Origin: a virus
Taxonomy: Duplodnaviria > Heunggongvirae > Uroviricota > Caudoviricetes
Strand: one strand, 5' to 3'
IMG/VR virus record: IMGVR_UViG_2861038214_000003
Location: 1 to 47,202 of that record
Length of the DNA stretch: 47,202 nucleotides
This document shows positions 312-36,501 of the stretch, in pieces. Below the pieces are notes generated by a model. That model did no database searches. It was not told where the DNA came from and saw nothing but the letters and a program-made list of their open reading frames with translations. The translations under genes were made by a program, and so were the position numbers. How positions within the stretch are numbered: position 1 is the stretch's first letter; every line of letters begins with the position of its first letter.

Positions 312-3300
312 TCAATGTTCGCTTCCTGTTAACTGCCCGACAAGTGCAACCAGTTCGCTTACCTGATTTTCCAGAGTGCTGATCCGGGTGCCTGCTGTTG
401 CCATATTTTTACGTAGCGTTATGTTTTCCTCTTCCAGCGCGGTAACGCGACCATCTGTTTCACGGGCGACCTGAACAAGTAACCCCGTCACGGCGGAGTA
501 GTCAACATTAAGATAGCGAGTTTCTTCGCGTAGCTCGTTGCCGTCAACGGTCGGACCTTGCAACTCTTCACCATAATGAGTAAACGATCCCACAGCTTCA
601 GGTATCGCCTCCATTACTTCCTGTGCAATAACGCCAGCATAAGGCATTCCGTTTTCCTTGAGCGTGTAGGTGTACCCGTTCATTTTACGGATTGCTTTCG
701 TCGCGTCGCTGATAACGCGAATATCGTCTTTAAGGTCGCGGTCTGATGACTGATTCAGCGTTGTGCAATTAATAGCGCCATTTACATCAAACAACTGGCC
801 TGCTGATGTTTTTTGCGCATAAAACAGATACGCAGCAGACGTTCCAACCTCAAAAACGTTTTGTCGATCACTTGATCCCCATACTTTTGCGGCAAATGAT
901 AGTTCTGTATTACCTAAGTTCTGTAAAACAAAACGATTGCCAGTCCCTGATTGCTTTGTAAGGGTTAAATCAACAGTTGAGTTAACCTCATCCTTGTTGA
1001 TAGTGAGCGCCTGCGCTTTAGCCCCGTTAACAGCACCTGTTTTGAGTTGAACCGCGCCGTCATTACCATTTAGCAGTATCTCAGCTCCGCTAAAGAAATT
1101 TTTTAGCGACAGCATCTTACTTACGCCGACTGATGAACCCAACGCCCACGCGAGAGAATTACCGGTGCTATCAAACCCACGTACAAAGCAATCCATTTTG
1201 CTATAGTCTGACGTGCTTCCAAGGACATCAATCCGCCCTCCGCCAGATTTTAACGGGTTAGATGTGGTTAATGACCTGACAGCAAGATCGGTGGATGAAT
1301 TTAGATCGTCTACTGTTAGTAATTTCTTCCATTCCTGCATCGTTCCGTTTTCAACTGTTCTTCCCCAAAAACCGGAATTGCGGCCTCCGAACTGCACAGC
1401 ATAATTTTTACTAAATTGAACATGAATGCCGCCAAGAACCATAGAACCTGCCGGGCCGTTTGTACTGCCTGCGATTGGTCTAAATTTGTCGACGTTATCA
1501 GTATGCTGAGAGTTCCAGTCATGACCTGTTAATGTTGCGATTCCTGAGTTAGCTGTAATTAACCCAGACGCTTTAAGATTTTGCACATCAATTCTGTCGT
1601 TTGCGAAATTATATGCAATTGCGTTACTAACGCTTCCGGCATCATCATAATCGCGTTTCTGAATAAACCAGTCGCCAGCATTAGCAATGAGAGTATAAGT
1701 AGGCGTGTTAGCCGGGCGATCTGTTTCATTAAATCTTATTGCTGGGTTAGCGCTCCTTATTTGTAAAGGTTTTTCAACCGTTGATTTCAGTATCGCACTA
1801 TCTACAATTAAATTACCTTCTGAGTTAAGGTTTAGATATTTTGAAGCACCAGTTGAACCATCGTATGTAAACCTTATTGTTAATTGACCTGGCTCATTTG
1901 ATAAAGTCTCAACATACATATCAGCACCAAGACGCACAGTGCTGTCAGTTGCTAACAGTCTTGTATGGAGAATACCACTAGATGTGTATGTATTGGTCGA
2001 ATCACTATATCTATCAAGAAATAGACTGTTAAGTTGAGGGCTATTACTCCTGCCTAATCCAAGATTCGTTCTGGCACCATCAATAGTTGCCGCACCAGTA
2101 CCACCATGAGAAACATCAAGCGGTATCCATTTTTTTTGTGTGTCGCTGTAACACCCCCATGTTGATCCGGTTAAACCCAGGCGCATGGATTTATCATGGT
2201 TATATAACCATGTTTCGCTATTCCATTGGTCAAGACGGTCCACTTCATTTTTGCGAGCGTGGCGTGTCCATTGCGGGCCTGTTGTCGGATTCCAGCGATA
2301 AGTATAAAGCGAGCGCGTAGCCCATCCCTGAAATACACCTGTATACGCTGGTGTTCCATCTACCTGACTAATAAACCCCGTAAGACTGCTTTCACCGGAT
2401 GCAATCGATGGAAAGCCTTTTGCATTACTCATAATGCGCATAAATCCGATATACCCTGATGGGTTGCCGGAAATATCAGGACAATCACGCGGGGCTGAGC
2501 CAAGACCGATATTATCGCCAACAATTACTTGCGCCTGGTTGCGATAATTAAGTGCGTCCGCCGCAGATTTCGCCGCGTTTGTTTCACTGGATTTAGCATT
2601 AGTTTCGCTGGCTTTAGCGTTTGTTTCGCTGCTCTTTGCTGCTGCCTCGCTATTTTTCGCGTTGGTTTCTGATTTTTTGGCTGCTGTCGCGGAGTTTGCC
2701 GATGCAGTTTGTGAGGCCGCTGCCGCCTGTGCGCTGTTATCCGCATTCGTCTCAGACGTTTTTGCGGCCTTCGCGGAATTTCCTGCCGCCGTTGCCGAGG
2801 AAGCTGCACTACTGGCACTTGATGATGCGTTCGTTTCTGATGATTTCGCTGCCTCTTTTGAGGCCGCCGCATCCCGGGCTGAGGTGGCAGCTTCTGACGC
2901 TTTCGTGGTCGCGGTGGATGCAGAAGTGGCGGCTGATTGTTGTGACGCTGCCGCATTCGTTTCTGACGTTTTCGCCGCACCGGCACTGGTGGCCGCCGCG
3001 CTTTTTGAGGACTCTGCAGCGGCAGCACTTTTTGATGCTTCAGTAGCCTTTGTTGATGCCGTTCCTGCGCTGGAAGACGCTGACTGAGCCGACGACGCGG
3101 CCTGTCCGGCTGACGTGCTGGCTGCGCGTGCTGAGTCTGCAGCATCAGTCGCATGGGTTGCCGCCTCACGGGCTGATGTGCCGGCATCGCCGGCTGACTT
3201 CTTCGCGGCTGCCGTGTTCTGTGCCACCGCGGACGCGTTACGCGCCACCTCTTCCACCATCAGCTCAAAACGGCGCAGTGCCTCCGGACGGACATCATCC

Positions 3301-3584
3301 TCCGTCATGGCACCAAGAAAATCATTCAGCGTACCGGGTTGAGAATCTTCATACACGGTGATGGTCCCGGCATGTGACGGCGGGAACCCTTCCACCAACA
3401 GAATAACGCTGTACTGACCGTACTCAACGTCCATGCTGTAACGCCCGGCTTCATCCGGATTTTCAGATGCCAGCGTGTTCACCACCACCGTGGTGCTGTT
3501 ACGTTTTGCTTTCAGCTGGATTGTGCAGTTCTGTACCGGTTTTCCTGTGCCGTCTTTCAGTACACCTGAAATCTTTACTGCCAT
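312..3584 (-). CDS. stf: Side tail fibre protein (Stf-like) with Ala/Ser/Thr-rich repeat region and a C-terminal intramolecular chaperone (peptidase S74-like) domain
   Basis: 1090-aa ORF, GGGGGG RBS before the ATG at 3584. The C-terminus (..GVIAQEVMEAIPEAV..LNVDYSAVTGLLVQVARE..ALEEENITLRKN..) matches my recollection of the autoproteolytic chaperone domain of endosialidase-type fibres. Position downstream of J and lom. Confidence 0.85.
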   Translation of the reverse strand: MAVKISGVLKDGTGKPVQNCTIQLKAKRNSTTVVVNTLASENPDEAGRYSMDVEYGQYSVILLVEGFPPSHAGTITVYEDSQPGTLNDFLGAMTEDDVRPEALRRFELMVEEVARNASAVAQNTAAAKKSAGDAGTSAREAATHATDAADSARAASTSAGQAASSAQSASSSAGTASTKATEASKSAAAAESSKSAAATSAGAAKTSETNAAASQQSAATSASTATTKASEAATSARDAAASKEAAKSSETNASSSASSAASSATAAGNSAKAAKTSETNADNSAQAAAASQTASANSATAAKKSETNAKNSEAAAKSSETNAKASETNAKSSETNAAKSAADALNYRNQAQVIVGDNIGLGSAPRDCPDISGNPSGYIGFMRIMSNAKGFPSIASGESSLTGFISQVDGTPAYTGVFQGWATRSLYTYRWNPTTGPQWTRHARKNEVDRLDQWNSETWLYNHDKSMRLGLTGSTWGCYSDTQKKWIPLDVSHGGTGAATIDGARTNLGLGRSNSPQLNSLFLDRYSDSTNTYTSSGILHTRLLATDSTVRLGADMYVETLSNEPGQLTIRFTYDGSTGASKYLNLNSEGNLIVDSAILKSTVEKPLQIRSANPAIRFNETDRPANTPTYTLIANAGDWFIQKRDYDDAGSVSNAIAYNFANDRIDVQNLKASGLITANSGIATLTGHDWNSQHTDNVDKFRPIAGSTNGPAGSMVLGGIHVQFSKNYAVQFGGRNSGFWGRTVENGTMQEWKKLLTVDDLNSSTDLAVRSLTTSNPLKSGGGRIDVLGSTSDYSKMDCFVRGFDSTGNSLAWALGSSVGVSKMLSLKNFFSGAEILLNGNDGAVQLKTGAVNGAKAQALTINKDEVNSTVDLTLTKQSGTGNRFVLQNLGNTELSFAAKVWGSSDRQNVFEVGTSAAYLFYAQKTSAGQLFDVNGAINCTTLNQSSDRDLKDDIRVISDATKAIRKMNGYTYTLKENGMPYAGVIAQEVMEAIPEAVGSFTHYGEELQGPTVDGNELREETRYLNVDYSAVTGLLVQVARETDGRVTALEEENITLRKNMATAGTRISTLENQVSELVALVGQLTGSEH
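2520..3190 (-). repeat. Degenerate in-frame tandem repeats (about 21 nt) encoding repeated (K/A)SSETNA-like heptads within stf
   Basis: Repeated units such as tttagcattagtttcgctgg / tttagcgtttgtttcgctgc on the plus strand; the protein shows KSETNAKNSEAAAKSSETNAKASETNAKSSETNAAKS. Confidence 0.7.
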
Positions 3585-3595
3585 ATTCCCCCCAC

Positions 3596-3622
3596 AAAAA
3601 AGCCCACCTGAACCGGCGGGCT
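3596..3622 (-). terminator. Candidate intrinsic terminator between lom and stf
   Basis: GC-rich hairpin (agccc...gggct) followed by a T-run on the minus strand. Confidence 0.4.
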
Positions 3623-3648
3623 GTCATAACACTGTGTTACCTGGCTAA

Positions 3649-4248
3649 TCAGAATTTATAACCGACACCCACGATGAAACCGTCAGTGCGCCAGTCACCA
3701 CTGCCAGAACCTTCATAAGCAATATCAATGGCCACGGATTCGGTCGGGTTAAACTGCACGCCAGCCCCCCACGCCAGAGACGTGTTGCTGTGGCGACCGT
3801 CATCACTTCCGGTCAGCACATCGTGCTTTTTCCCCTTGTTGTCAGTTACGCGGATATAATCTCCGGAGAAAGTCGAAACACGGCTGTAAGCCATACCCGC
3901 CATCGCATACGCGCTGAACCATTCATTCACGCGCACAGACGGCCCCGCCATCACGCTGAACCAGCGGTTACGCACTGAATCTTCATGCCAGCGGGTATCG
4001 CTGTAACGGGTCAGCTGGCGATTCTTGTCTCCTGCATAGCTGAATGACGTCACCAGCCCCAGCGTATCCGTAAACTCATAACGGTATTTCACGTTAATCC
4101 CGTTAAGATCATCGCTGCCGGGAACGTTCGTCGAGGCATGAAGATACCCCGCGCTCAGCGTGGACTGATGTTCAGACGCCCATGCAGGCGCACCGGATAC
4201 GACCAGACAGATGGCTGCGGACAAAATGGCTGCACAAACTTTACGCAT
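3649..4248 (-). CDS. lom: Lom/Ail-family outer membrane beta-barrel protein
   Basis: 199-aa ORF with a signal peptide; resembles lambda Lom from memory; ends ..GVGYKF. Sits in the canonical J-lom-stf position. Confidence 0.9.
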   Translation of the reverse strand: MRKVCAAILSAAICLVVSGAPAWASEHQSTLSAGYLHASTNVPGSDDLNGINVKYRYEFTDTLGLVTSFSYAGDKNRQLTRYSDTRWHEDSVRNRWFSVMAGPSVRVNEWFSAYAMAGMAYSRVSTFSGDYIRVTDNKGKKHDVLTGSDDGRHSNTSLAWGAGVQFNPTESVAIDIAYEGSGSGDWRTDGFIVGVGYKF

Positions 4249-4270
4249 AATTACCTCTCGCTTTTCTGCA

Positions 4271-4297
4271 ATAAAAAAGGCGTCATTTCTGACGCCC
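4271..4297 (-). terminator. Intrinsic terminator after J
   Basis: Minus strand reads gggcgtcagaaatgacgcc followed by ttttttatt: 7-bp stem, 4-nt loop, U-tract. Confidence 0.6.
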
Positions 4298-4314
4298 GTT
4301 CTGGGTTATAAAAT

Positions 4315-7716
<3,402 letters not shown>

Positions 7717-7773
7717 TCACGCTCCATAAACGACAAAACCGCCCGCAGGCGGTTTCACACAAAACATTCTGCA

Positions 7774-8421
7774 TCAGCGACCAATCACCACAACCTGACC
7801 ACCATCTCCTTCATCTGCCGTGCTGATCTCCTGAGAAATCACCCGTGACCCCACGCGCATTTCACCGTACAGAACCGGCAGAACATTGCCCTGGGCAACC
7901 ATGTTATCCAGTGAGGAGAAATAGGTGTTCTGCTTACCGTTATCCGTTGTCTGTGTGCGGGGAGTTCTGGCTTTCGGTGCCAGCATCTGAGCCACACCGC
8001 CCAGGATCATACTGGCCCCTGCCGCATACATGCCCGATACAGCCGCGGTACCCAGCCAGCCCACAGGGTTCCACCATGCCACCGCAATCAGCGCCGCACC
8101 CAGCACTGCCTGAAAAACACCGCCACTTTTAGCTCCCGCCAGACGCGGCACAATGTGGATCACGGCACCATTTGCCAGCGGCTCATTAAGACGGGCAGAT
8201 AATTCATTTTCTCCTGCATCACGCCCGACAATGCGCACCTGATACCAGCCGTCGCTCAGTTTCTGACGAAACGCCGGGAGCTGTGTGGCCAGTGCGCGGA
8301 TGGCTTCAGCCCCCGTTTTCACACGAAGGTCGATGCGGCGGCCAAATCGTTGTAAATCCCCGTAAAGGCAGATGCGTGCCATTCCCGGTGACGCCAGAGG
8401 GAGTGTGTGCGTCGCTGCCAT
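7774..8421 (-). CDS. I: Tail assembly protein I
   Basis: 215-aa ORF starting MAATHTLPLASPGMARICLYGDLQRFGRR.., lambda I-like; overlaps the end of K. Confidence 0.85.
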   Translation of the reverse strand: MAATHTLPLASPGMARICLYGDLQRFGRRIDLRVKTGAEAIRALATQLPAFRQKLSDGWYQVRIVGRDAGENELSARLNEPLANGAVIHIVPRLAGAKSGGVFQAVLGAALIAVAWWNPVGWLGTAAVSGMYAAGASMILGGVAQMLAPKARTPRTQTTDNGKQNTYFSSLDNMVAQGNVLPVLYGEMRVGSRVISQEISTADEGDGGQVVVIGR

Positions 8422-9062
8422 TTGTCGGTGTACCTCTCTCGTTTACTCAGTTGTTCAGGAATATGGTGCAGCAGCTCACCGTCACCACAGTAAATGGCGG
8501 CATGATTCGGCACCGATGAACCAAAACAGCACAGCAGCACGTCGCCAGGCTGCGCCTCTGTCAGTGGGACACGGTAAAAACCCGTTGCCTCCATATTGTC
8601 AAGATAGAGATTCTGGCCGTGACGCCACCAGTCATCCCCGCGATGAAAATCCGGCATCTCAATTCCCGCCAGATGGTAAGCGTCCCGGAACAGCGTGTAA
8701 CAGTCCGTCACCCCGTGCTCAAAGCGCCGCCCGGTGAGATGCGGCACACAGAGGAATTTATGAATCGCCCCCCGGCAGACCAGCCACCACGGCAAATCAC
8801 TCTGCACCTGCAGCCGCCGGTCGGCCTCACTCAGCCAGGGCAGACCACCGGGGTGGCTGTGGACCAGCGCCACAATCTCTCCCTGCATTTCTGCACTCAG
8901 CCAGTCCTCCGGCGACATCCGGAAATACTCCTCCGGCTCACCGGAGATATTCACGCAGGGAAAATATCTTTCTCCCTCCGGCGTTCTCACCACGAAGCCG
9001 CACGACTCTGCTGGCGCACATCGCCGGGCGTGCGCCAGAATCGCTGATTCTGTCTCTGTCAT
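8319..9062 (-). CDS. K: Tail assembly protein K (JAMM/MPN plus NlpC/P60-like); true start may be internal
   Basis: Protein carries HSHP (JAMM-like) and Cys/His motifs typical of lambda K; position between L and I. Confidence 0.8.
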   Translation of the reverse strand: MTETESAILAHARRCAPAESCGFVVRTPEGERYFPCVNISGEPEEYFRMSPEDWLSAEMQGEIVALVHSHPGGLPWLSEADRRLQVQSDLPWWLVCRGAIHKFLCVPHLTGRRFEHGVTDCYTLFRDAYHLAGIEMPDFHRGDDWWRHGQNLYLDNMEATGFYRVPLTEAQPGDVLLCCFGSSVPNHAAIYCGDGELLHHIPEQLSKRERYTDKWQRRTHSLWRHREWHASAFTGIYNDLAAASTFV

Positions 9063-26103: not shown

Positions 26104-27561
26104 TTAGGAGCGCCAAAAAAAACCTGAAAACAATATAATAACAGGATAAATTTCAAGGCGACCAAGAATCATAGCTATGCACATTAAACATTTTGCAATG
26201 TCATTAAGCACTCCGAATGACGATGCAGTAGCCCCAAAACCTAATCCCATATTATTAATACATGCAGCCACTGTTGCAAATGATGTAAGAAAATCATATC
26301 CCATACCATTTAACACCAGTATAAAAAACACCGTGAAGAGAGTATAAAGAAAAAAGAAACTCCATACAGACCTCATTACACGATCTGTAACTATCTTCCC
26401 TCCTACATTTACACTCAACAACGCTCTGGGATGAGAAAGCTGATTTATCTCGTGTTTGCTTTGTTTGAAAAGTATAAGAAATCGAAGTGACTTAATTCCA
26501 CCACAAGTTGAACCTATACATCCCCCAAAGAAACTTGACAACAGCAAAAACACTATCGTGTGCGTGGGCCAACTTGCATAATCCTGCGTAGCTAAACCAT
26601 TATCAGTGAGCATGGAGCTGGCAAGAAAAAACGAATGAATAAAACTTCCATGCAAGTCATACATACCTATATGCCAGACCTGGAAAGAGGTAACAATGAT
26701 CACCCCTAAGGCTATTAACAGAAAGAAACGAAGTTCAATATCTCTGATTAAAGGTTTTATCGTTTTCCTGCTAATAACAATATACCAAAGAGTGAAGTTG
26801 AAAGCCGATAGCAGGGAAAAAGAACCAGCCACCAGCTCAACCAAATAGTTATTAAAATATCCGATACTCTCGCTATGAGTTGAGAAACCACCAAGCGAAA
26901 CTGTGGAAATCCCGTGACAAATAGCATCAAACAAAGGCATTCCTGCAAGTCTATAACAGACAATACAAGCAATACCTAATAAAGAATAAGTTATCCACAG
27001 TGTCCGTGACGTATCGGCCAGGCGGGGAGTGAGTTTGTCATCCTTAAATGGCCCCGGCATTTCTGACTGATAAAGCTTTGCACCACCAATACCCAATAAT
27101 GGCAATACAGCAACCGCCAGAACAATAACTCCTAAACCACCTATAAAATTTAACTGTGACCGATAGTACAAATATGCCCGAGGTAATGAACTAACATCAT
27201 CAATTACAGTTGCTCCTGTTGTTGTTATTCCAGAAACCCCTTCAAACAGAGCATCAATGAACGTTAAATTAAGTTCTGAGTCAATCCATAAAGGGAATGC
27301 ACTAATAACAGAAAACAAAATCCAAAACATTACAATTATAATAAACCCATCACGGGTACGTAATTGAATGCCAGATTTCTTAGTTGTATACCACGCTCCG
27401 CCACCAATGCAAAAAAATATAACGAAAGTTATAAAGAAAACGAACAGGCTTTTTTCTTTATAAAACAATGCTACAACCATTGGTGGCAACATTGAAAGAC
27501 TATAGAGCCAAACCAGGAACCCACACATATGAGTAACAACTCTTACATGAGATGTATTCAT
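26104..27561 (-). CDS. trkG: Trk-system potassium uptake membrane protein TrkG
   Basis: From MNTSHVRVVTHMCGFLVWLY.. the protein matches my recollection of K-12 TrkG (Rac prophage); the ORF also extends 6 codons upstream to 27579. The region is visibly AT-rich. Confidence 0.9.
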   Translation of the reverse strand: MNTSHVRVVTHMCGFLVWLYSLSMLPPMVVALFYKEKSLFVFFITFVIFFCIGGGAWYTTKKSGIQLRTRDGFIIIVMFWILFSVISAFPLWIDSELNLTFIDALFEGVSGITTTGATVIDDVSSLPRAYLYYRSQLNFIGGLGVIVLAVAVLPLLGIGGAKLYQSEMPGPFKDDKLTPRLADTSRTLWITYSLLGIACIVCYRLAGMPLFDAICHGISTVSLGGFSTHSESIGYFNNYLVELVAGSFSLLSAFNFTLWYIVISRKTIKPLIRDIELRFFLLIALGVIIVTSFQVWHIGMYDLHGSFIHSFFLASSMLTDNGLATQDYASWPTHTIVFLLLSSFFGGCIGSTCGGIKSLRFLILFKQSKHEINQLSHPRALLSVNVGGKIVTDRVMRSVWSFFFLYTLFTVFFILVLNGMGYDFLTSFATVAACINNMGLGFGATASSFGVLNDIAKCLMCIAMILGRLEIYPVIILFSGFFWRS

Positions 27562-30949: not shown

Positions 30950-31548
30950 TACGCAAACTCCAGCAGCTGCGCGGCCACATTTTCGACTTGTTCCGGAGAG
31001 GAAAATTTACGGAACAGAATCCAGTTCCACAGCACATTCAGAACAGATTTATAAACCTGCTGAAACTCGGTTTCGTCCATATTCGCAAAAGCGATAGATT
31101 TTGCCCGACGCCCGCGGCTACCGTCCGGATAAAAATGTTCGGTGTAAAATCCAGCCTGAATGGTTACCCACTCGCGAAAAGCCTCAAACGACTTTAGCAA
31201 TGCCGTATCCCGGGTTCTGCGTGTCGCAACTGTATTCAGATATTGCTCTGCGGCATCACTCAGGGCTGGCGTGTGTTCCCGACCAACTGATTCGCACAGG
31301 TAATCAACGAAACCAGACAGCAGTTCTCGTTCGCGAGGCGTGATCGCCCCACCGACCGGAGTCCAGTAATCGAATCCCAGTTGCAGGAGTTTGAAAAAAC
31401 GCTTGTGGAATGCGTAGTTACGCACACGCTTAAAGTCTGCGTGTATCCACTCGCCTATTTTGATTTGATGCAGAAAATCACAACTCTCCGGCGTCGCCGG
31501 GAGAAGTAATCCGGAAGAGGTTTGTTTGACCAGTTGTATATGCGCCAT
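30949..31548 (-). CDS. Conserved nin-region phage protein (possibly YbcN/DUF1367-like)
   Basis: 199-aa ORF; TAATG stop/start overlap with the ybcO-like gene. Confidence 0.5.
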   Translation of the reverse strand: MAHIQLVKQTSSGLLLPATPESCDFLHQIKIGEWIHADFKRVRNYAFHKRFFKLLQLGFDYWTPVGGAITPRERELLSGFVDYLCESVGREHTPALSDAAEQYLNTVATRRTRDTALLKSFEAFREWVTIQAGFYTEHFYPDGSRGRRAKSIAFANMDETEFQQVYKSVLNVLWNWILFRKFSSPEQVENVAAQLLEFA

Positions 31549-31820
31549 TTCTTAATCTCTCGATGGCGCAGCGCAGCAGATGCCAGTTGTTCAGGCTGAC
31601 GTATGAAGTATAAATAAACTGGCTCCAGTGTAAAGCCCCACCTTAATGGAATAAAAACCAAACAACAGATTGCTGGGATACAAACAACGCTTATTATTAA
31701 AAGCGGTTAAACAAATTAAATTTTAATGTTATGCAAATCTGCCAGATCACCATAATATCTCATTTGAAAACCGCTGAAATAACAACCCTATTAGGGTTAA
31801 TCATATTAAGGTGAGTAAAT

Positions 31821-31907
31821 ATGGAAAACAACAAATCTGCACATTACGTTCCTTTTTTATCTGTAATACTTTTTGTTTTATGCTGTGCGTGGGCATTATT
31901 TTTATAA
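31821..31907 (+). CDS. 28-aa hydrophobic peptide (candidate small membrane or toxin-like peptide)
   Basis: Strong RBS TAAGGTGAG 7 nt before the ATG; MENNKSAHYVPFLSVILFVLCCAWALFL*; found by hand. Confidence 0.35.
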   Translation: MENNKSAHYVPFLSVILFVLCCAWALFL

Positions 31908-32013
31908 AAATATTCACAGATAAAATATACCCGCCAAAGTTGGTTAAGTGCGGGTGCGTTGAGGATGCCTGACTCATCAGAGGTGGCGAGGGATTTCTCC
32001 CTCGCCTGGTCTC

Positions 32014-32166
32014 TCACTCCTCAGGTTCGTAAGCTGTGAAGACAGCGACCTCCGTCTGACCGGTTCGGATTTGTACCTCGCAGAAGTCTTTCCTTGTTAC
32101 CAGTGCCATCACAACGACGGTAATACAGATGACAATCAGGGCGATTAACATCGTCTTTTGCTGCAT
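32014..32166 (-). CDS. hokD: Hok/Gef-family type I toxin (HokD/RelF-like)
   Basis: Hand translation MQQKTMLIALIVICITVVVMALVTRKDLCEVQIRTGQTEVAVFTAYEPEE* closely matches HokD/RelF from memory; a 9-bp-stem hairpin lies just 3' (31986-32007). Confidence 0.85.
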   Translation of the reverse strand: MQQKTMLIALIVICITVVVMALVTRKDFCEVQIRTGQTEVAVFTAYEPEE

Positions 32167-32314
32167 CACAGCCTACTTACCCTTACCTTTCGTTCAAGCG
32201 GTAAGGTCACTTTTTCTGTTGTGTGCTAACCAACAAACCTCTTTTATCTGCATTAAAAATCGTTATCATGTCATCCTCAACCTGTTAATAGCCTATTATG
32301 GACTTTAGTAAACA

Positions 32315-34144
32315 ATGAGCACTTCCGCATACAAGAGCAAAATTCGAACACTCCAGTGCGCGTTAAAAAACGGTGAATTTGAACCATTCATACAACATAT
32401 CCGTTTTCCATACTTTAAAAATATAGAGCAGAATGCAAGGATCGATTTTCAGTTCCCTATAACGGCTTTAGTAGGAAAAAATGGAACTAATAAAAGTTCT
32501 GTTATCAAAGCGCTATTTGGTTGCCCACATGGTAAAAATATAACTCGTTATTGGTTCACAACTGAAACAGATGAGTTTCCTGACCTAAAACTTGCTGATG
32601 GCAGTTCTCTTAAACCTAGATATATATATGGATATAAAAATGCTGATGGCCGTTTAGTTGAAATACTCCAAGCACGTATCAATGCTACCAAGAAAACAAT
32701 CGATTATTGGGAAACAAGTCGACCATCTGTTGGTGATAACATGGAGAGTATTTCGGATGATCTGGGTGCTAATAGTAATGCAACCAGATGGAAAAAAATC
32801 AAGAAGGGATTGGTTTTCCTAGATTTCAGATCGGAAATAAGTGCATTTGATAGATGTATGTATCACTCTGATTTTAAATTAAGAAAGAAGAAGAGTGGTG
32901 TATTAATTACAAAGCAAGACTATATCAGAAGCAAATCTAAATATATAAAGAAAGCTTTTGATGAAAAGCTAAGTAATTTAAGACTCTGGGGGGCGGAAAC
33001 CATTGTTAAAAATATAACCTTGGCGCCAGAACTAGTTGAGCACGTCTCATTTATATTAGGGAAAAAATATAAAGTCATTAAATTTCTTGAGCATCGGTTA
33101 TTTGGAACCAGAGGAGGAACCGCTTTACTTTCAACTGATAAGTTGAACTATACAGAAGCGTTTGCTGGAAGTGGTGAATTTGCAATAGTTTCACTAATAC
33201 TCAATATTTATTCGGCCAAACCTAATTCATTAATTCTTCTTGACGAACCAGAAGTTTCACTTCACCCTGGTGCACAAAAAAGGATGATGGATGTTCTGTA
33301 CTCTATTGTTGAGCAGAAAAAACATCAAGTGGTAATATCAACCCATTCTCCTGTTATTGTGAACACTCTTCCCAAAGATGCCATTAAATTATTTGTTTTT
33401 GATGAAGAGAGTGAAACAGCTAAAATAGTTCAAAATATAGCACCGGATGAAGCTTTTATAGAGCTAGGGCATGATATTAACAAGAAAACAATAATTGTAG
33501 AAGATAAATTAGCTAAAGCAATTATAGATAAAGCGATTAAAAATGATGAAAGATTAAGCTTATCATTTAGTGTAAGTTATATACCAGGTGGTTCGGAGAC
33601 CATTTTAAGCAAGCATCTTCCCAGTTACGCTGTGGTAGAACGCAATGATATTTTGTTTTTACTTGATGGTGATAAAAACAAAAAAATAAAACCAGTAAGA
33701 ATTAGTGAAATTGCTGATGCTGATTTAGTTAATACAATGTGCAAATATTATGGTTGCGAGTTAATTATCAATGCCAGTGGTAGTAATGGCAAAAAAAATG
33801 AACAAGAATCTAATAGACTCAAAAGGCAAGTGCTTGAGTATGCATTCAATAAAGTGCAGTATTTACCATTTGATACTCCCGAACAATTACTCATTGAAAA
33901 GGCAATTACGCCAAGTGAAAAAGAAATAATTGATTCACAGACCTGGAGTTCTAATGATCCAGAACTGTATAAGAATCAAATAAGATTATTAGCGCAACAC
34001 CTGTATGATAAAGAAGAAGTAAATGCAGAGGAAATTTTTTGCCTCCAACAAATGATGACCGCAAGACTTAAAAATGAATTGCCTGAATTTATAAAAATAA
34101 GAAAAATAATTACTCAGGCTCTTGACCGTGGTATCATTAGGTAG
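32315..34144 (+). CDS. OLD-family ABC-ATPase/TOPRIM nuclease (class 1 OLD-like, or a fused PARIS-like AriA-AriB)
   Basis: Deviant Walker A LVGKNGTNKSS, Walker B with LHP (LILLDEPEVSLHPGA), H-loop VISTHSP, then TOPRIM-like Glu (TIIVEDKLAKA) and DxD (LFLLDGDKNKK); 609 aa, AT-rich. Confidence 0.75.
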   Translation: MSTSAYKSKIRTLQCALKNGEFEPFIQHIRFPYFKNIEQNARIDFQFPITALVGKNGTNKSSVIKALFGCPHGKNITRYWFTTETDEFPDLKLADGSSLKPRYIYGYKNADGRLVEILQARINATKKTIDYWETSRPSVGDNMESISDDLGANSNATRWKKIKKGLVFLDFRSEISAFDRCMYHSDFKLRKKKSGVLITKQDYIRSKSKYIKKAFDEKLSNLRLWGAETIVKNITLAPELVEHVSFILGKKYKVIKFLEHRLFGTRGGTALLSTDKLNYTEAFAGSGEFAIVSLILNIYSAKPNSLILLDEPEVSLHPGAQKRMMDVLYSIVEQKKHQVVISTHSPVIVNTLPKDAIKLFVFDEESETAKIVQNIAPDEAFIELGHDINKKTIIVEDKLAKAIIDKAIKNDERLSLSFSVSYIPGGSETILSKHLPSYAVVERNDILFLLDGDKNKKIKPVRISEIADADLVNTMCKYYGCELIINASGSNGKKNEQESNRLKRQVLEYAFNKVQYLPFDTPEQLLIEKAITPSEKEIIDSQTWSSNDPELYKNQIRLLAQHLYDKEEVNAEEIFCLQQMMTARLKNELPEFIKIRKIITQALDRGIIR

Positions 34145-34167
34145 TGATTCTGGATGCAGAGGGAAAA

Positions 34168-35208
34168 ATGAAAAAAATCAAAGTGTTTGACTTCTTTTCC
34201 GGTTGTGGTGGAACCAGCCAAGGTTTCCATCAAGCTGGAATGGATATTGTTTTTGGCCTCGATTTCGACGTTGATGCAGCCAGTTCATTTCGTGCAAATT
34301 TCCCGCAGGCTGCTTTTATTAACTCGGACATTAGGTTAATCGACAACAATGCCATAAACAAGTTAGTAAAAAAACATCGTAATGATTACATTCTTTTTTC
34401 AGGATGTGCGCCTTGTCAACCGTACTCTAAGCAAAACTCAAATAAGAAAAATGATGATCCACGATTAGATCTATTAAAGGAATTCAGTCGCTTTGTAGAG
34501 CATTATATGCCTGATTTTATTTTTGTTGAAAACGTGCCAGGAATGCAAAAGTTTAACAAAAATGAAGGAACATTCATGATGTTTTTAGAAATGCTTTCAT
34601 CAAAGGGATATAGTGTAGATTATAAAGTAATGCCAGCTGCGTGGTACGGTGTACCACAGACGCGAGAAAGATTAGTGCTCATTGCATCCAAGGATTTTTA
34701 TGTCGCATTGCCTTCTCCTACACATGGGGTTGGAAATACTCCCTATTCAACAGTAAAGGACTGGATCGCTAATTTACCGAAGATAGAAGCAGGAGAAAAG
34801 CATAATAGTATTCCTGATCATGAAGCTGCACGCTTATCAGAGCTTAATTTACGTAGAATAAAATGCACTCCTGAAGGTGGAAGTCGAGAATTTTGGCCAG
34901 ATGAATTGATTTTAGAATGCCATCGTAACCATAAAGGGCATACAGACGTATATGGACGTTTGAGTTGGGACAAACCAGCCAGCGGACTAACAACTCGTTG
35001 TATTAGCTATTCAAATGGACGTTTTGGACATCCAACACAAAATCGAGCAATATCGGTTCGTGAAGCAGCGTGTCTACAAACATTTCCTTTGGATTATAAA
35101 TTTATTGGTTCTTTGCAATCTCGGGCTCGTCAAATAGGAAATGCGGTCCCTCCGAAGATGTCTGAAACGATTGGAAAACATTTGCTTAATATAATCAAAG
35201 CCTCCTAG
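34168..35208 (+). CDS. DNA (cytosine-5)-methyltransferase (Dcm-type)
   Basis: Motif I FDFFSGCGG, motif IV GCAPCQPYS, motif VI FVENVPG, motif VIII QTRERL, motif X GNAVPP; GAGGG RBS before the ATG at 34168 (the ORF track start at 34144 is GTG). Confidence 0.95.
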   Translation: MKKIKVFDFFSGCGGTSQGFHQAGMDIVFGLDFDVDAASSFRANFPQAAFINSDIRLIDNNAINKLVKKHRNDYILFSGCAPCQPYSKQNSNKKNDDPRLDLLKEFSRFVEHYMPDFIFVENVPGMQKFNKNEGTFMMFLEMLSSKGYSVDYKVMPAAWYGVPQTRERLVLIASKDFYVALPSPTHGVGNTPYSTVKDWIANLPKIEAGEKHNSIPDHEAARLSELNLRRIKCTPEGGSREFWPDELILECHRNHKGHTDVYGRLSWDKPASGLTTRCISYSNGRFGHPTQNRAISVREAACLQTFPLDYKFIGSLQSRARQIGNAVPPKMSETIGKHLLNIIKAS

Positions 35209-35228
35209 GAGGCTTTATTTTATTGTTA
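35197..35228. terminator. Bidirectional intrinsic terminator at the convergent junction
   Basis: Perfect palindrome gcctcctaggaggc flanked by A-run on the 5' side and TTTATTTTATT on the 3' side; overlaps the methyltransferase stop codon. Confidence 0.65.
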
Positions 35229-35241
35229 TCCCCCCTAGTAG

Positions 35242-35688
35242 TTAATCGTGCTCACCAGACAACCTCCTGAAATTACTCTGGTAAAATGCCAGTACACGCT
35301 GCATAACTTCGCTTTTCCGGCACTCGCGACAGATTATATTCAGGCGCCTGTCGTAGCGGCGTATTTCTCCGTCTGGTAATGACCAGATAAGGTCAGGATC
35401 AACCACAACCGTTTTTTTCACCTTTGCCCTGGATAGTTTTTTGCGGGCGTTTTGCCAGTCCTTACGAGCCTGCTCAGACGGGAATAATCCGTAGCCTGAA
35501 TTGTAAACATCACCACTGGCGACCAGTTCTCTGGCGAGAGTGCTTATGTAATACCTTGATGCACCGGTTTTAGCCTCCAGAGCCCGTAACGTCTCGCGAC
35601 CGCTCAGACGTACAAGTTCAACAACCTGCCCTTTAATTTTTTCCCGCTCTTCTGGTGTAAATACTTTTGCCATAGGTGCCTCCGGCAA
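35242..35688 (-). CDS. Hypothetical phage protein, last gene of the rightward early operon
   Basis: 148-aa ORF abutting the upstream gene. Confidence 0.5.
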   Translation of the reverse strand: MPEAPMAKVFTPEEREKIKGQVVELVRLSGRETLRALEAKTGASRYYISTLARELVASGDVYNSGYGLFPSEQARKDWQNARKKLSRAKVKKTVVVDPDLIWSLPDGEIRRYDRRLNIICRECRKSEVMQRVLAFYQSNFRRLSGEHD

Positions 35689-36501
35689 TCACTTTTCCGA
35701 CACAATACGACTGGAGGAATCGAAAATCTGTCGAACAATATCCCGGTGCTTGTTCAGCTCCCGCAGCGCGGCGCAGACTCGCTCCCACTTCTGGACATGA
35801 TTTTTCGCCCGACGCAGTTCACGGTTTGCCATATGCAGCGATGGTAAAATCAGGTTATCCGCTTGCGTTTCAGTAAACGATGGCAACGACTGCACAATGT
35901 CCGCCACAGTTTCTGTTTTAATATCTTCCTGTGTTGCAGCTTCCTGTACTGGTAACGCAACACCGGCTAGCTGAGGAAAGGCTTTACCATCTGTTTCCGC
36001 TACCGATGCAGCTTTCGGCTCTGCTGGTAAATTACCGCCCGGCATGCAGTAACGAAATTTACCGTTCTGATTAACGCGAATCAGACGAGCTTTGCTGATT
36101 GCCATTGCCAGCGTTGAAGCCACTTTGCGGGATGTGGTACCGAACAACGTAGCCAGTTCATCCGCAGTTAGTGGACCACGTTGTTCAATCGTCGCAGTTA
36201 AATCGCTCTCTGAAATTTTCGCGACTGTTGCCGTGGTAGTTTCTTCCGGCAGTTCTGCCGGCGCTGGCTGTTCCTGCTGAACGTTGTTATCAGCCACACG
36301 CCAGGTGTACGCGCTTTTATCAACGAAACCAGCCTTTTTCAGTTCCCATAGTTCGTTCAGCACTTCTTCACGGCTGATATCAAGTCGCGCAGCAAGTTCT
36401 ATGGATGTGGCTTTTCCCATTGCTTTCAGTGCGTCAAAAACAGTCTCCATTAAATTTTTCTCCCGGTAAAAATTACTTCGCAATTCCTGGCTGGACGACA
36501 T
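35689..36501 (-). CDS. Hypothetical protein with two winged-helix-like segments
   Basis: 270-aa ORF; may start at the internal Met near 36450. Confidence 0.5.

Follow-up and report, generated by a model that had tools for sequence, protein, structure and literature searches.

OLD-family nucleases are among the most widespread defense proteins, and the main question still open about them is how self is discriminated from non-self; separate answers to it were needed for Gabija, P2 Old, and PARIS. A 2023 review of the family and a 2025 paper on its class 1 recognize OLD classes 1 to 4, none of which includes a methylase. Here, we analyzed a 47,202-nt viral DNA (positions 1 to 47,202 of IMG/VR record IMGVR_UViG_2861038214_000003; hereafter, the window) that carries, within a Rac-like Escherichia coli prophage, a cassette of <3 kb composed of two genes, one for a 609–amino acid (aa) OLD-family ATPase-TOPRIM nuclease and one for a C5-cytosine DNA methyltransferase (MTase). 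A preliminary description made from the sequence of the window had suggested that the two genes constitute an undescribed restriction-modification (R-M)–like defense pair. Domain identity, intact catalytic motifs, near-obligate linkage, co-evolution, tight spacing, and a mobile location support the view that they form one methylation-coupled, R-M–like defense module, and we put the chances that this view is correct at about even.

The members of OLD classes 1 to 4 (P2 Old, Ts OLD, and Vc OLD; GajA; retron-Eco8; and PARIS AriA-AriB, respectively) resemble the cassette protein in combining an ABC ATPase with a TOPRIM domain, in having a catalytic Glu and DxD pair, and in being carried by prophages and mobile elements. 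They differ from it in their partners. Class 1 nucleases have none, whereas the cassette protein has the C5-MTase. In class 2 (Gabija), a UvrD/PcrA-like helicase, gajB, lies downstream instead of a C5-MTase, and no helicase cluster was found among the neighbors of the 80 nuclease loci considered below. Class 3 (retron type I-B) includes a reverse transcriptase and an msr/msd noncoding RNA, whereas the neighbors of the cassette are the hok/gef and DUF977 genes and an Rfam scan of positions 31500-35800 for Sok/Hok or other RNAs yielded no match. In class 4 (PARIS), AriA and the DUF4435/TOPRIM protein AriB are split or, in some cases, fused; the cassette protein is fused. The 609-aa protein appears to belong to none of the four recognized classes. 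Also related to it are HEC-04 and IbfA, which share the same fused ABC-ATPase–TOPRIM architecture; the distance from the Glu to the DxD is 56 residues in HEC-04 (E319 and D375/D377) and 55 in the 609-aa protein. Defense by HEC-04 requires its Walker A and TOPRIM acidic residues (Payne et al., 2024 preprint), and the protein has also been seen embedded in the methylase-containing system Hma. However, the HEC-04 profile is ~115 residues shorter than the 609-aa protein, and HEC-04 and IbfA act alone, without a dedicated adjoining C5-MTase, while the cassette gene is almost always paired with one. Two further candidates were set aside: WonAB, which consists of an OLD-like ABC ATPase and a PD-(D/E)xK nuclease without a methylase, is not the same system, and an OLD-like gene beside the PluTI R-M system belongs to a Gabija pair.

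In the literature that we searched, no paper describes an OLD-family nuclease with a dedicated C5-MTase; Krishnan et al. may have catalogued the neighborhood. Searches by the accessions WP_000107696 and WP_000721512 retrieved no paper, and PADLOC has no single model for the pair, the two proteins matching separate generic models. The view that this partnership is undescribed, expressed in the preliminary description, therefore agrees with the review and the 2025 paper, which give only classes 1 to 4. Judged from sequence, what appears to be new here is the presence of an OLD-family defense nuclease in a methylation-linked context.

The 609-aa protein matches the Pfam families AAA_21 (1.8e-20), AAA_15 (3.6e-20), and SMC_N, all above cutoff. 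None of the Pfam TOPRIM models scores, no NCBIfam model is above cutoff, and neither database has a dedicated model; of the profile matches anticipated in the preliminary description, Pfam gives AAA_21/AAA_15 but not TOPRIM. In PADLOC, 141 families match the protein, and the best 25 were considered. The top match is HEC-04 (1.7e-34), residues 232-459 being aligned with positions 160-383 of the 494 in its profile; a second profile, that of the retron type I-B effector, covers residues 41-464 (2.8e-26). The ATPase-Toprim models thus reach residues 459-464, across the TOPRIM region. Matches to the Old and GajA profiles are confined to the Walker B/signature stretch and those to the AriA profiles (3e-22 and 1.5e-20) to the ATPase part, and AriB is not found among the best 25 families. 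PHROGs files the nuclease under “unknown function.” The family is compact: a search of 1.84 billion representatives at E ≤ 1e-30 yielded 374 clusters at 50% identity.

In an alignment of 25 members with 37 to 83% identity, the Walker A lysine (K60, within G54-S62), the signature (S286-G-E288), Walker B (D310-E311), the H-loop (H344), and the TOPRIM residues E396-D397, D451-G-D453, and E523 are all invariant. E396 and D451-G-D453 are conserved at ≥90% in 67 nuclease sequences. An insert at residues 80-172 is also rich in invariant aromatic and basic residues (W80, F81, R121, E133, P137, R158, F171, and R172). The AlphaFold2 (AF2) model has a pLDDT of 83.8, and the helices predicted at the C terminus (533-604) have pLDDT values of 87-95. 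When this model was compared with the PDB by Foldseek, the top match was Ts OLD (6p74; 3.3e-12, 628 columns), and further matches were to GajA (8sm3 and 8u7i), PtuA, and retron Eco8 (9lpa), those to Ts OLD, GajA, and Eco8 being full-length and having a probability of 1.00. The TM scores to OLD-family structures, 0.3-0.4, are low owing to domain orientation. Profiles, invariant residues, and the model together identify the protein as a member of the OLD family with ABC-ATPase and TOPRIM domains and a predicted nuclease activity, and the ABC-ATPase with a TOPRIM-like Glu and DxD pair that had been noticed in the translated sequence is confirmed by Pfam and PADLOC, by invariant K60, E396, and D451-G-D453, and by the OLD-like model.

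The second gene encodes a canonical C5-MTase, located exactly where the preliminary description had placed it, 23 bp downstream of the nuclease gene and in the same orientation. Its product scores 207 bits with PF00145 (4.9e-61; cutoff 22) and 166 bits with TIGR00675 (cutoff 100.65) and contains motifs I (DFFSGCGG), IV (PCQ, with the catalytic C83), VI (E121-N-V), VIII (Q164xR166xR168), and X (GNAVPP). On this evidence, the MTase is predicted to be catalytically complete. The residues of these motifs are invariant across 18 partner MTases, and the enzyme is therefore under selection for catalysis. The target-recognition region is conserved as much as, or more than, the catalytic core (top-residue fraction of 0.58-0.88 in 40 partners), suggesting one shared specificity within the core MTase clade. 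The closest sequence relatives with solved structures are the catalytic domains of eukaryotic DNMT1 (1e-38), followed by M.HaeIII (1e-20) and M.HhaI (1e-14); the match to DNMT1 includes a GRLxWD...HPxQxRxxSVRE block that precedes motif X. The profile of DruM from Druantia type II gives 306 bits, compared to 322 bits for the best Type II MTase profile.

To estimate the linkage of the two genes, we used 80 nuclease loci from species-representative genomes of ~12 phyla and 63 viral or prophage contigs, about a dozen of which carry the same E. coli cassette and 60 of which are informative. C5-MTases were the only MTase type systematically searched for beside the nuclease. An adjoining co-oriented C5-MTase gene was found in 58 of the 80 genome loci, and in ~15 more, such a gene lies on the same strand at a distance of up to 5 kb; six loci lack an MTase match, four of them ending at a contig edge. 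In the viral sample, the C5-MTase adjoins the nuclease in 58 of the 60 informative loci (co-oriented in 52, convergent in 5 or 6). The spacer in the 88 co-oriented loci where the nuclease gene comes first has a median length of 2.5 bp and is ≤30 bp in 94% of cases; in many loci, the reading frames overlap by 1 or 4 nt. The pair is kept despite changes of order, nuclease-MTase, MTase-nuclease, and convergent arrangements all being represented. The preliminary description had named a failure of the genes to co-occur elsewhere as an outcome that would speak against a pair, and this outcome is decisively contradicted by the 58/80 and 58/60 loci from ~12 phyla. When the identity matrices of the two proteins were compared across 40 pairs, the correlation was r = 0.83 (Mantel 0/2000). 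Over the same pairs, mean identity is 56% for the MTase and 41% for the nuclease, and this asymmetry of rates, with the MTase more conserved, is R-M–like.

These data bear on the possibility that the two genes have independent functions and simply travel together, i.e., that a stand-alone OLD- or HEC-04–like gene lies next to a solitary phage MTase with an anti-restriction or epigenetic role. HEC-04 and IbfA act as single genes, solitary copies of the nuclease occur, if rarely, and solitary C5-methylases are common in phages. Yet, adjacency is seen in ~90% or more of the informative loci across ~12 phyla, and the pairing survives inversions and order changes; stop and start codons overlap, and the mirror-tree correlation is 0.83. 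We estimate that a C5-MTase gene would adjoin a given gene by chance with a frequency of ~0.1%, there being one to few such genes per genome. Independent functions are thus unlikely; if the pair nonetheless were an ordinary linkage of autonomous genes, what is left would be a prophage moron encoding two domain families that are already known.

Both the E. coli cassette and its relatives are found in mobile settings. The segment 32100-35300 is present at ≥99% identity in 32 of 5,426 complete E. coli genomes. A second E. coli allele (L225-L228, 5001-7835; loci of our survey are designated by L numbers) encodes a 596-aa nuclease, 39% identical to that of the window, and a 346-aa MTase; it is located antisense between the Q antiterminator and holin genes of other E. 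coli lambdoid prophages and is present at ≥99% identity in 8 of the 5,426 genomes and at 60-80% identity in 10 more. In Stx phages, Shiga toxin genes are located at this moron site. Another locus, L179, was ruled out as a representative of the second allele, having no E. coli match. In E. coli lambdoid prophages, two diverged alleles therefore occupy two different moron sites. Neither E. coli allele had a match in 50,697 phage records, which were searched with both DNA and protein, and a plasmid search retrieved only distant homologs. Some loci contain one damaged gene. A frameshifted or truncated nuclease gene accompanies an intact MTase gene in L008 (5950-7815), L204, and L221, and the reverse situation, a split MTase gene with an intact nuclease gene, is seen in L029 (7289-8292), a metagenome-assembled genome; with so few cases and such uncertain assemblies, this pattern carries little weight.

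A search from the MTase side reveals what else this clade of enzymes is combined with. In metagenomes, the nuclease adjoins 11 of the ~13 closest MTase relatives (≥55% identity). Relatives at 43-54% identity lack an adjoining nuclease and have other effectors in that position; these MTases (L094, L124, L147, L154, and many of L091-L160) head operons of several kinds, containing (i) a paraMORC-HEF_HK kinase, a Response_reg_2 protein, and Vsr, as in the operon described in PMC8011034; (ii) a shorter double-GHKL protein and a 370-aa protein without a Pfam match; or (iii) GmrSD_N and HEPN_MAE_28990. Since the nuclease is found beside the closest MTases and other effectors beside the distant ones, the nuclease occupies an effector slot. 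The MTase clade would then be a constant self-marking component with interchangeable effectors, of which the ATPase-TOPRIM protein is one, and this is the strongest comparative argument for an R-M–like role. Some loci combine the effectors: in L077 and L078, the paraMORC-HEF_HK kinase and the Response_reg_2 protein are encoded between the MTase and the nuclease in the same operon, and in 10 loci, the protein encoded between them is a GHKL ATPase that is MORC-like and ends in Hypoth_Ymh (HEPN). [quoted passage not shown] MADS includes a related, methylation-associated ABC-type ATPase, MAD3, but the cassette protein scores 37 bits with the MAD3 model, whose cutoff is 420. Druantia II, MADS, and Hma are multigene systems with other core proteins, and the window encodes no further component of any of them.

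If the two genes form an R-M–like module, the C5-MTase would methylate one short and fixed motif in the DNA of the host and the prophage, thereby marking this DNA as self, and the ATPase-TOPRIM protein would be an ATP-dependent effector that is silent on methylated DNA and acts on the entry of unmethylated foreign DNA into the cell. The nuclease probably does not read the motif itself, because none of its regions changes with the partner MTase; it could take its recognition from the MTase, either in a Type III–like complex or through engagement of the MTase with unmodified sites. We infer each of three elements of this scheme, namely, protective methylation, the target of the nuclease, and the complex of both proteins. 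The cassette shares with Type II and Type III R-M systems a tightly linked mobile pair of MTase and nuclease genes with the MTase more conserved, both tandem and convergent orders, the association of Vsr with a C5-MTase, and decay that tends to spare the MTase. It is unlike them in that its nuclease is an ATP-dependent ABC/TOPRIM protein without a module that covaries with the MTase. Type III Res-Mod would be the closest parallel to MTase-dependent recognition, but the cassette differs from it by having a C5-MTase and no helicase.

Several observations weigh against an R-M–like module. While the nuclease and the MTase are genetically linked as a unit, as R-M enzymes are, the nuclease does not come from a recognized restriction-endonuclease family, neither by Pfam nor among the best 25 of the 141 matching PADLOC families. 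We compared 40 nucleases paired with core-clade MTases to 27 paired with other C5-MTases (25-44% identical, including M.HpaII-like enzymes) and found only 3 group-specific positions tracking the MTase clade, versus 70 positions conserved in both groups. The nuclease is therefore without a visible specificity module, and of the R-M pair proposed in the preliminary description, linkage and co-evolution stand, whereas a nuclease that itself reads the unmethylated site is not established; the other option raised there, an ATPase-TOPRIM protein that senses methylation status, may still apply. The nuclease gene comes first in the window, and a controller protein is not evident, an arrangement that would be risky for a constitutive enzyme in an unmethylated host. 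Solitary nuclease genes, with ~6 kb of flank on each side, are present in L042 and L064, and a 30% identical homolog on a Clostridium plasmid has no MTase nearby. In L064, the solitary nuclease gene (5941-7752) adjoins a gene with the AspBHI N-terminal domain (4759-5475, − strand); AspBHI is a restriction enzyme dependent on 5-methylcytosine (5mC) and would be incompatible with a resident C5-MTase. In two Bacteroidota loci (L066 and L068; ~3650-7760), the nuclease gene comes immediately after a complete M.HpaII-R.HpaII system and is co-oriented with it. In three actinobacterial genomes, a SmaI-like endonuclease gene lies beside the MTase gene near the nuclease; it separates the MTase and nuclease genes in L010 and L037, whereas in L019 it is found downstream of the nuclease. 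The nearest characterized relative, HEC-04, confers protection on its own (Payne et al., 2024 preprint), and P2 Old and PARIS AriB cleave tRNA, not DNA. Last, the module is read from sequence analysis, not from experiment.

Some of the same observations would be accommodated by an abortive-infection sentinel, i.e., an auto-inhibited OLD-type effector, possibly a tRNase, that is coupled to the MTase and causes growth arrest rather than cutting of phage DNA. Its trigger could be a failure of the MTase or R-M layer or the inhibition of this layer by a phage factor, or else a report by the MTase of unmodified replicating DNA. OLD-ABC/TOPRIM modules recur in BREX and R-M–like loci, where they have been proposed to be “backup suicidal effectors” (Aravind group), and P2 Old and AriB, both tRNases, act as sensors of DNA structures or anti-restriction proteins. 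Such a role fits the observation that, in some loci, the nuclease gene follows a complete R-M system or adjoins genes for MORC/HEPN effectors, and it also fits the lack of specificity-determining positions found in the nuclease. A sentinel would also tolerate the nuclease-first gene order, and HEC-04 is toxic only on overexpression. In contrast, the dominant two-gene form lacks a primary restriction enzyme for which the nuclease could be a backup, and inhibition of the MTase would thus bring no advantage to a phage. The tight co-evolution with one MTase clade and its conserved target-recognition region fit marking better than bait. We regard a sentinel as possible, if doubtful.

The distribution of Vsr bears on both the R-M–like module and a further alternative. 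Vsr is encoded in 17 of the 80 genome loci, mostly in the same operon; it typically closes operons of the MTase-(GHKL)-nuclease-(GHKL)-Vsr type. Vsr repairs deaminated 5mC, and its presence in 17 loci therefore implies genuine 5mC in vivo. This raises the question of whether the nuclease takes part in 5mC maintenance, processing lesions or mismatches that arise from C5 methylation alongside Vsr and MutL-like GHKL proteins. The ABC ATPase superfamily includes MutS. Every MTase identified beside the nuclease is a C5 enzyme (C5-MTases being the type that was searched), the neighbors of the exceptional loci show no other MTase type, and operons with the order MTase-GHKL-nuclease-Vsr occur in Bacteroidota and other phyla; in the literature on the MORC-containing R-M context, MORC proteins have been compared with MutL. 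However, Vsr is missing from most two-gene loci and yet is found together with the nuclease in others, and the nuclease therefore neither replaces nor depends on Vsr. As a substitute for Vsr, the nuclease was rejected as the main explanation, the two being encoded in the same operons in 17 loci. Moreover, all characterized OLD-family members are defense proteins, the distribution of the pair is patchy and centered on prophage morons, and the GHKL partners have HEPN-type (Hypoth_Ymh) ends that are typical of effectors. A role in 5mC maintenance is, accordingly, very improbable.

The features of the cassette are listed in Table 1. RefSeq/PGAP coding sequences have the same two coordinates and are named “ATP-dependent nuclease” and “DNA cytosine methyltransferase.” The window is a segment of an E. 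coli chromosome, and its prophage genes include racR, ydaS/T/U/V, DUF1627, DUF977, hok/gef, DUF1367/1364/1133, lysis genes, and trkG. Both cassette genes are on the + strand, and every gene that flanks them (hok/gef, DUF977, ydaV/ydaU, and DUF1367 among others) is on the − strand. GC content is 0.33-0.38 over 32-35 kb, where the cassette is located, compared to 0.44-0.51 in the flanks. An AT-rich acquired moron on the strand opposite to the prophage operon, as supposed in the preliminary description, is consistent with these values. A second low-GC patch (0.38; AT skew of +0.25) coincides with trkG, a Rac prophage cargo gene (26104-27561, − strand), and positions 3001-9000 form a GC-rich block (0.50-0.60) that contrasts with the rest of the window.

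Table 1. Coordinates of the cassette features in the window.
Feature	Position	Strand	Evidence or remark
Upstream noncoding region	32170..32314	+	Between divergent hok/gef and the nuclease start; cassette promoter presumed here
609-aa OLD-family ABC-ATPase/TOPRIM nuclease gene (WP_000107696; nuclease activity predicted)	32315..34144	+	Open reading frame, PGAP, Pfam, PADLOC, alignment, AF2/Foldseek
ABC-ATPase head with inserts, ~aa 23-375	32381..33439	+	AAA_21 spans residues 49-350; invariant motifs
TOPRIM nuclease domain, ~aa 389-525	33479..33889	+	E396-D397, D451-G-D453, E523 invariant
C-terminal helical region, aa 526-609	33890..34141	+	Poorly conserved except K553 and Q578
Intergenic spacer, 23 bp, with Shine-Dalgarno GAGGG for the MTase	34145..34167	+	Sequence
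346-aa C5-cytosine DNA methyltransferase gene (WP_000721512)	34168..35208	+	PF00145, TIGR00675; ATG at 34168, preceded by GAGGG
MTase target-recognition region, ~aa 175-295	34690..35052	+	Conservation in 40 partner MTases
Perfect 20-nt palindrome AAAGCCTCCTAGGAGGCTTT	35197..35216	.	Intrinsic terminator–like hairpin at the end of the cassette, facing convergent DUF977

Since a consensus scan revealed no convincing + strand match to a sigma-70 promoter upstream of 32315, co-transcription of the nuclease and MTase genes is suggested by their spacing only. At the other end, the palindrome AAAGCCTCCTAGGAGGCTTT overlaps the MTase stop codon and has a terminator-like score on both strands; its T-run is good on the + strand (ATTTTATT) and poor on the − strand. 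The shared bidirectional terminator of the preliminary description is thus retained, with the − strand direction being the poorer one. Upstream of the cassette and divergent from it is a Hok/Gef-family toxin gene (32014-32169, − strand), separated from the start of the nuclease gene by 145 bp. The presumed promoter of the cassette would be overlapped by the leader and antisense-RNA region of this toxin gene. Because the second E. coli allele of the nuclease-MTase pair has no adjoining hok, hok/gef and the pair are probably independent morons.

An OLD clade whose only constant partner is an MTase, and which extends over at least 12 phyla, offers a simple genetic handle on self/non-self discrimination in this family; the cassette, coming from E. 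coli prophages and being <3 kb long, is directly testable in E. coli K-12. We tentatively propose that it represents a fifth context of OLD-family nucleases, in which a dedicated C5-MTase would provide the self/non-self discrimination and serve as the recognition or reporting subunit of a sequence-blind effector whose output may be DNA cleavage or OLD-style tRNA cleavage. If this is true, a methylation-gated OLD system would join the logic of restriction-modification with the abortive-infection machinery of the OLD family, and the concept of restriction-modification would be widened to include an ABC/TOPRIM effector. One clade of C5-methylases, whose closest solved relative is DNMT1, would then be a portable self-marking module for several effectors, shared by OLD, paraMORC-kinase/receiver, GmrSD_N with HEPN, and Druantia II.

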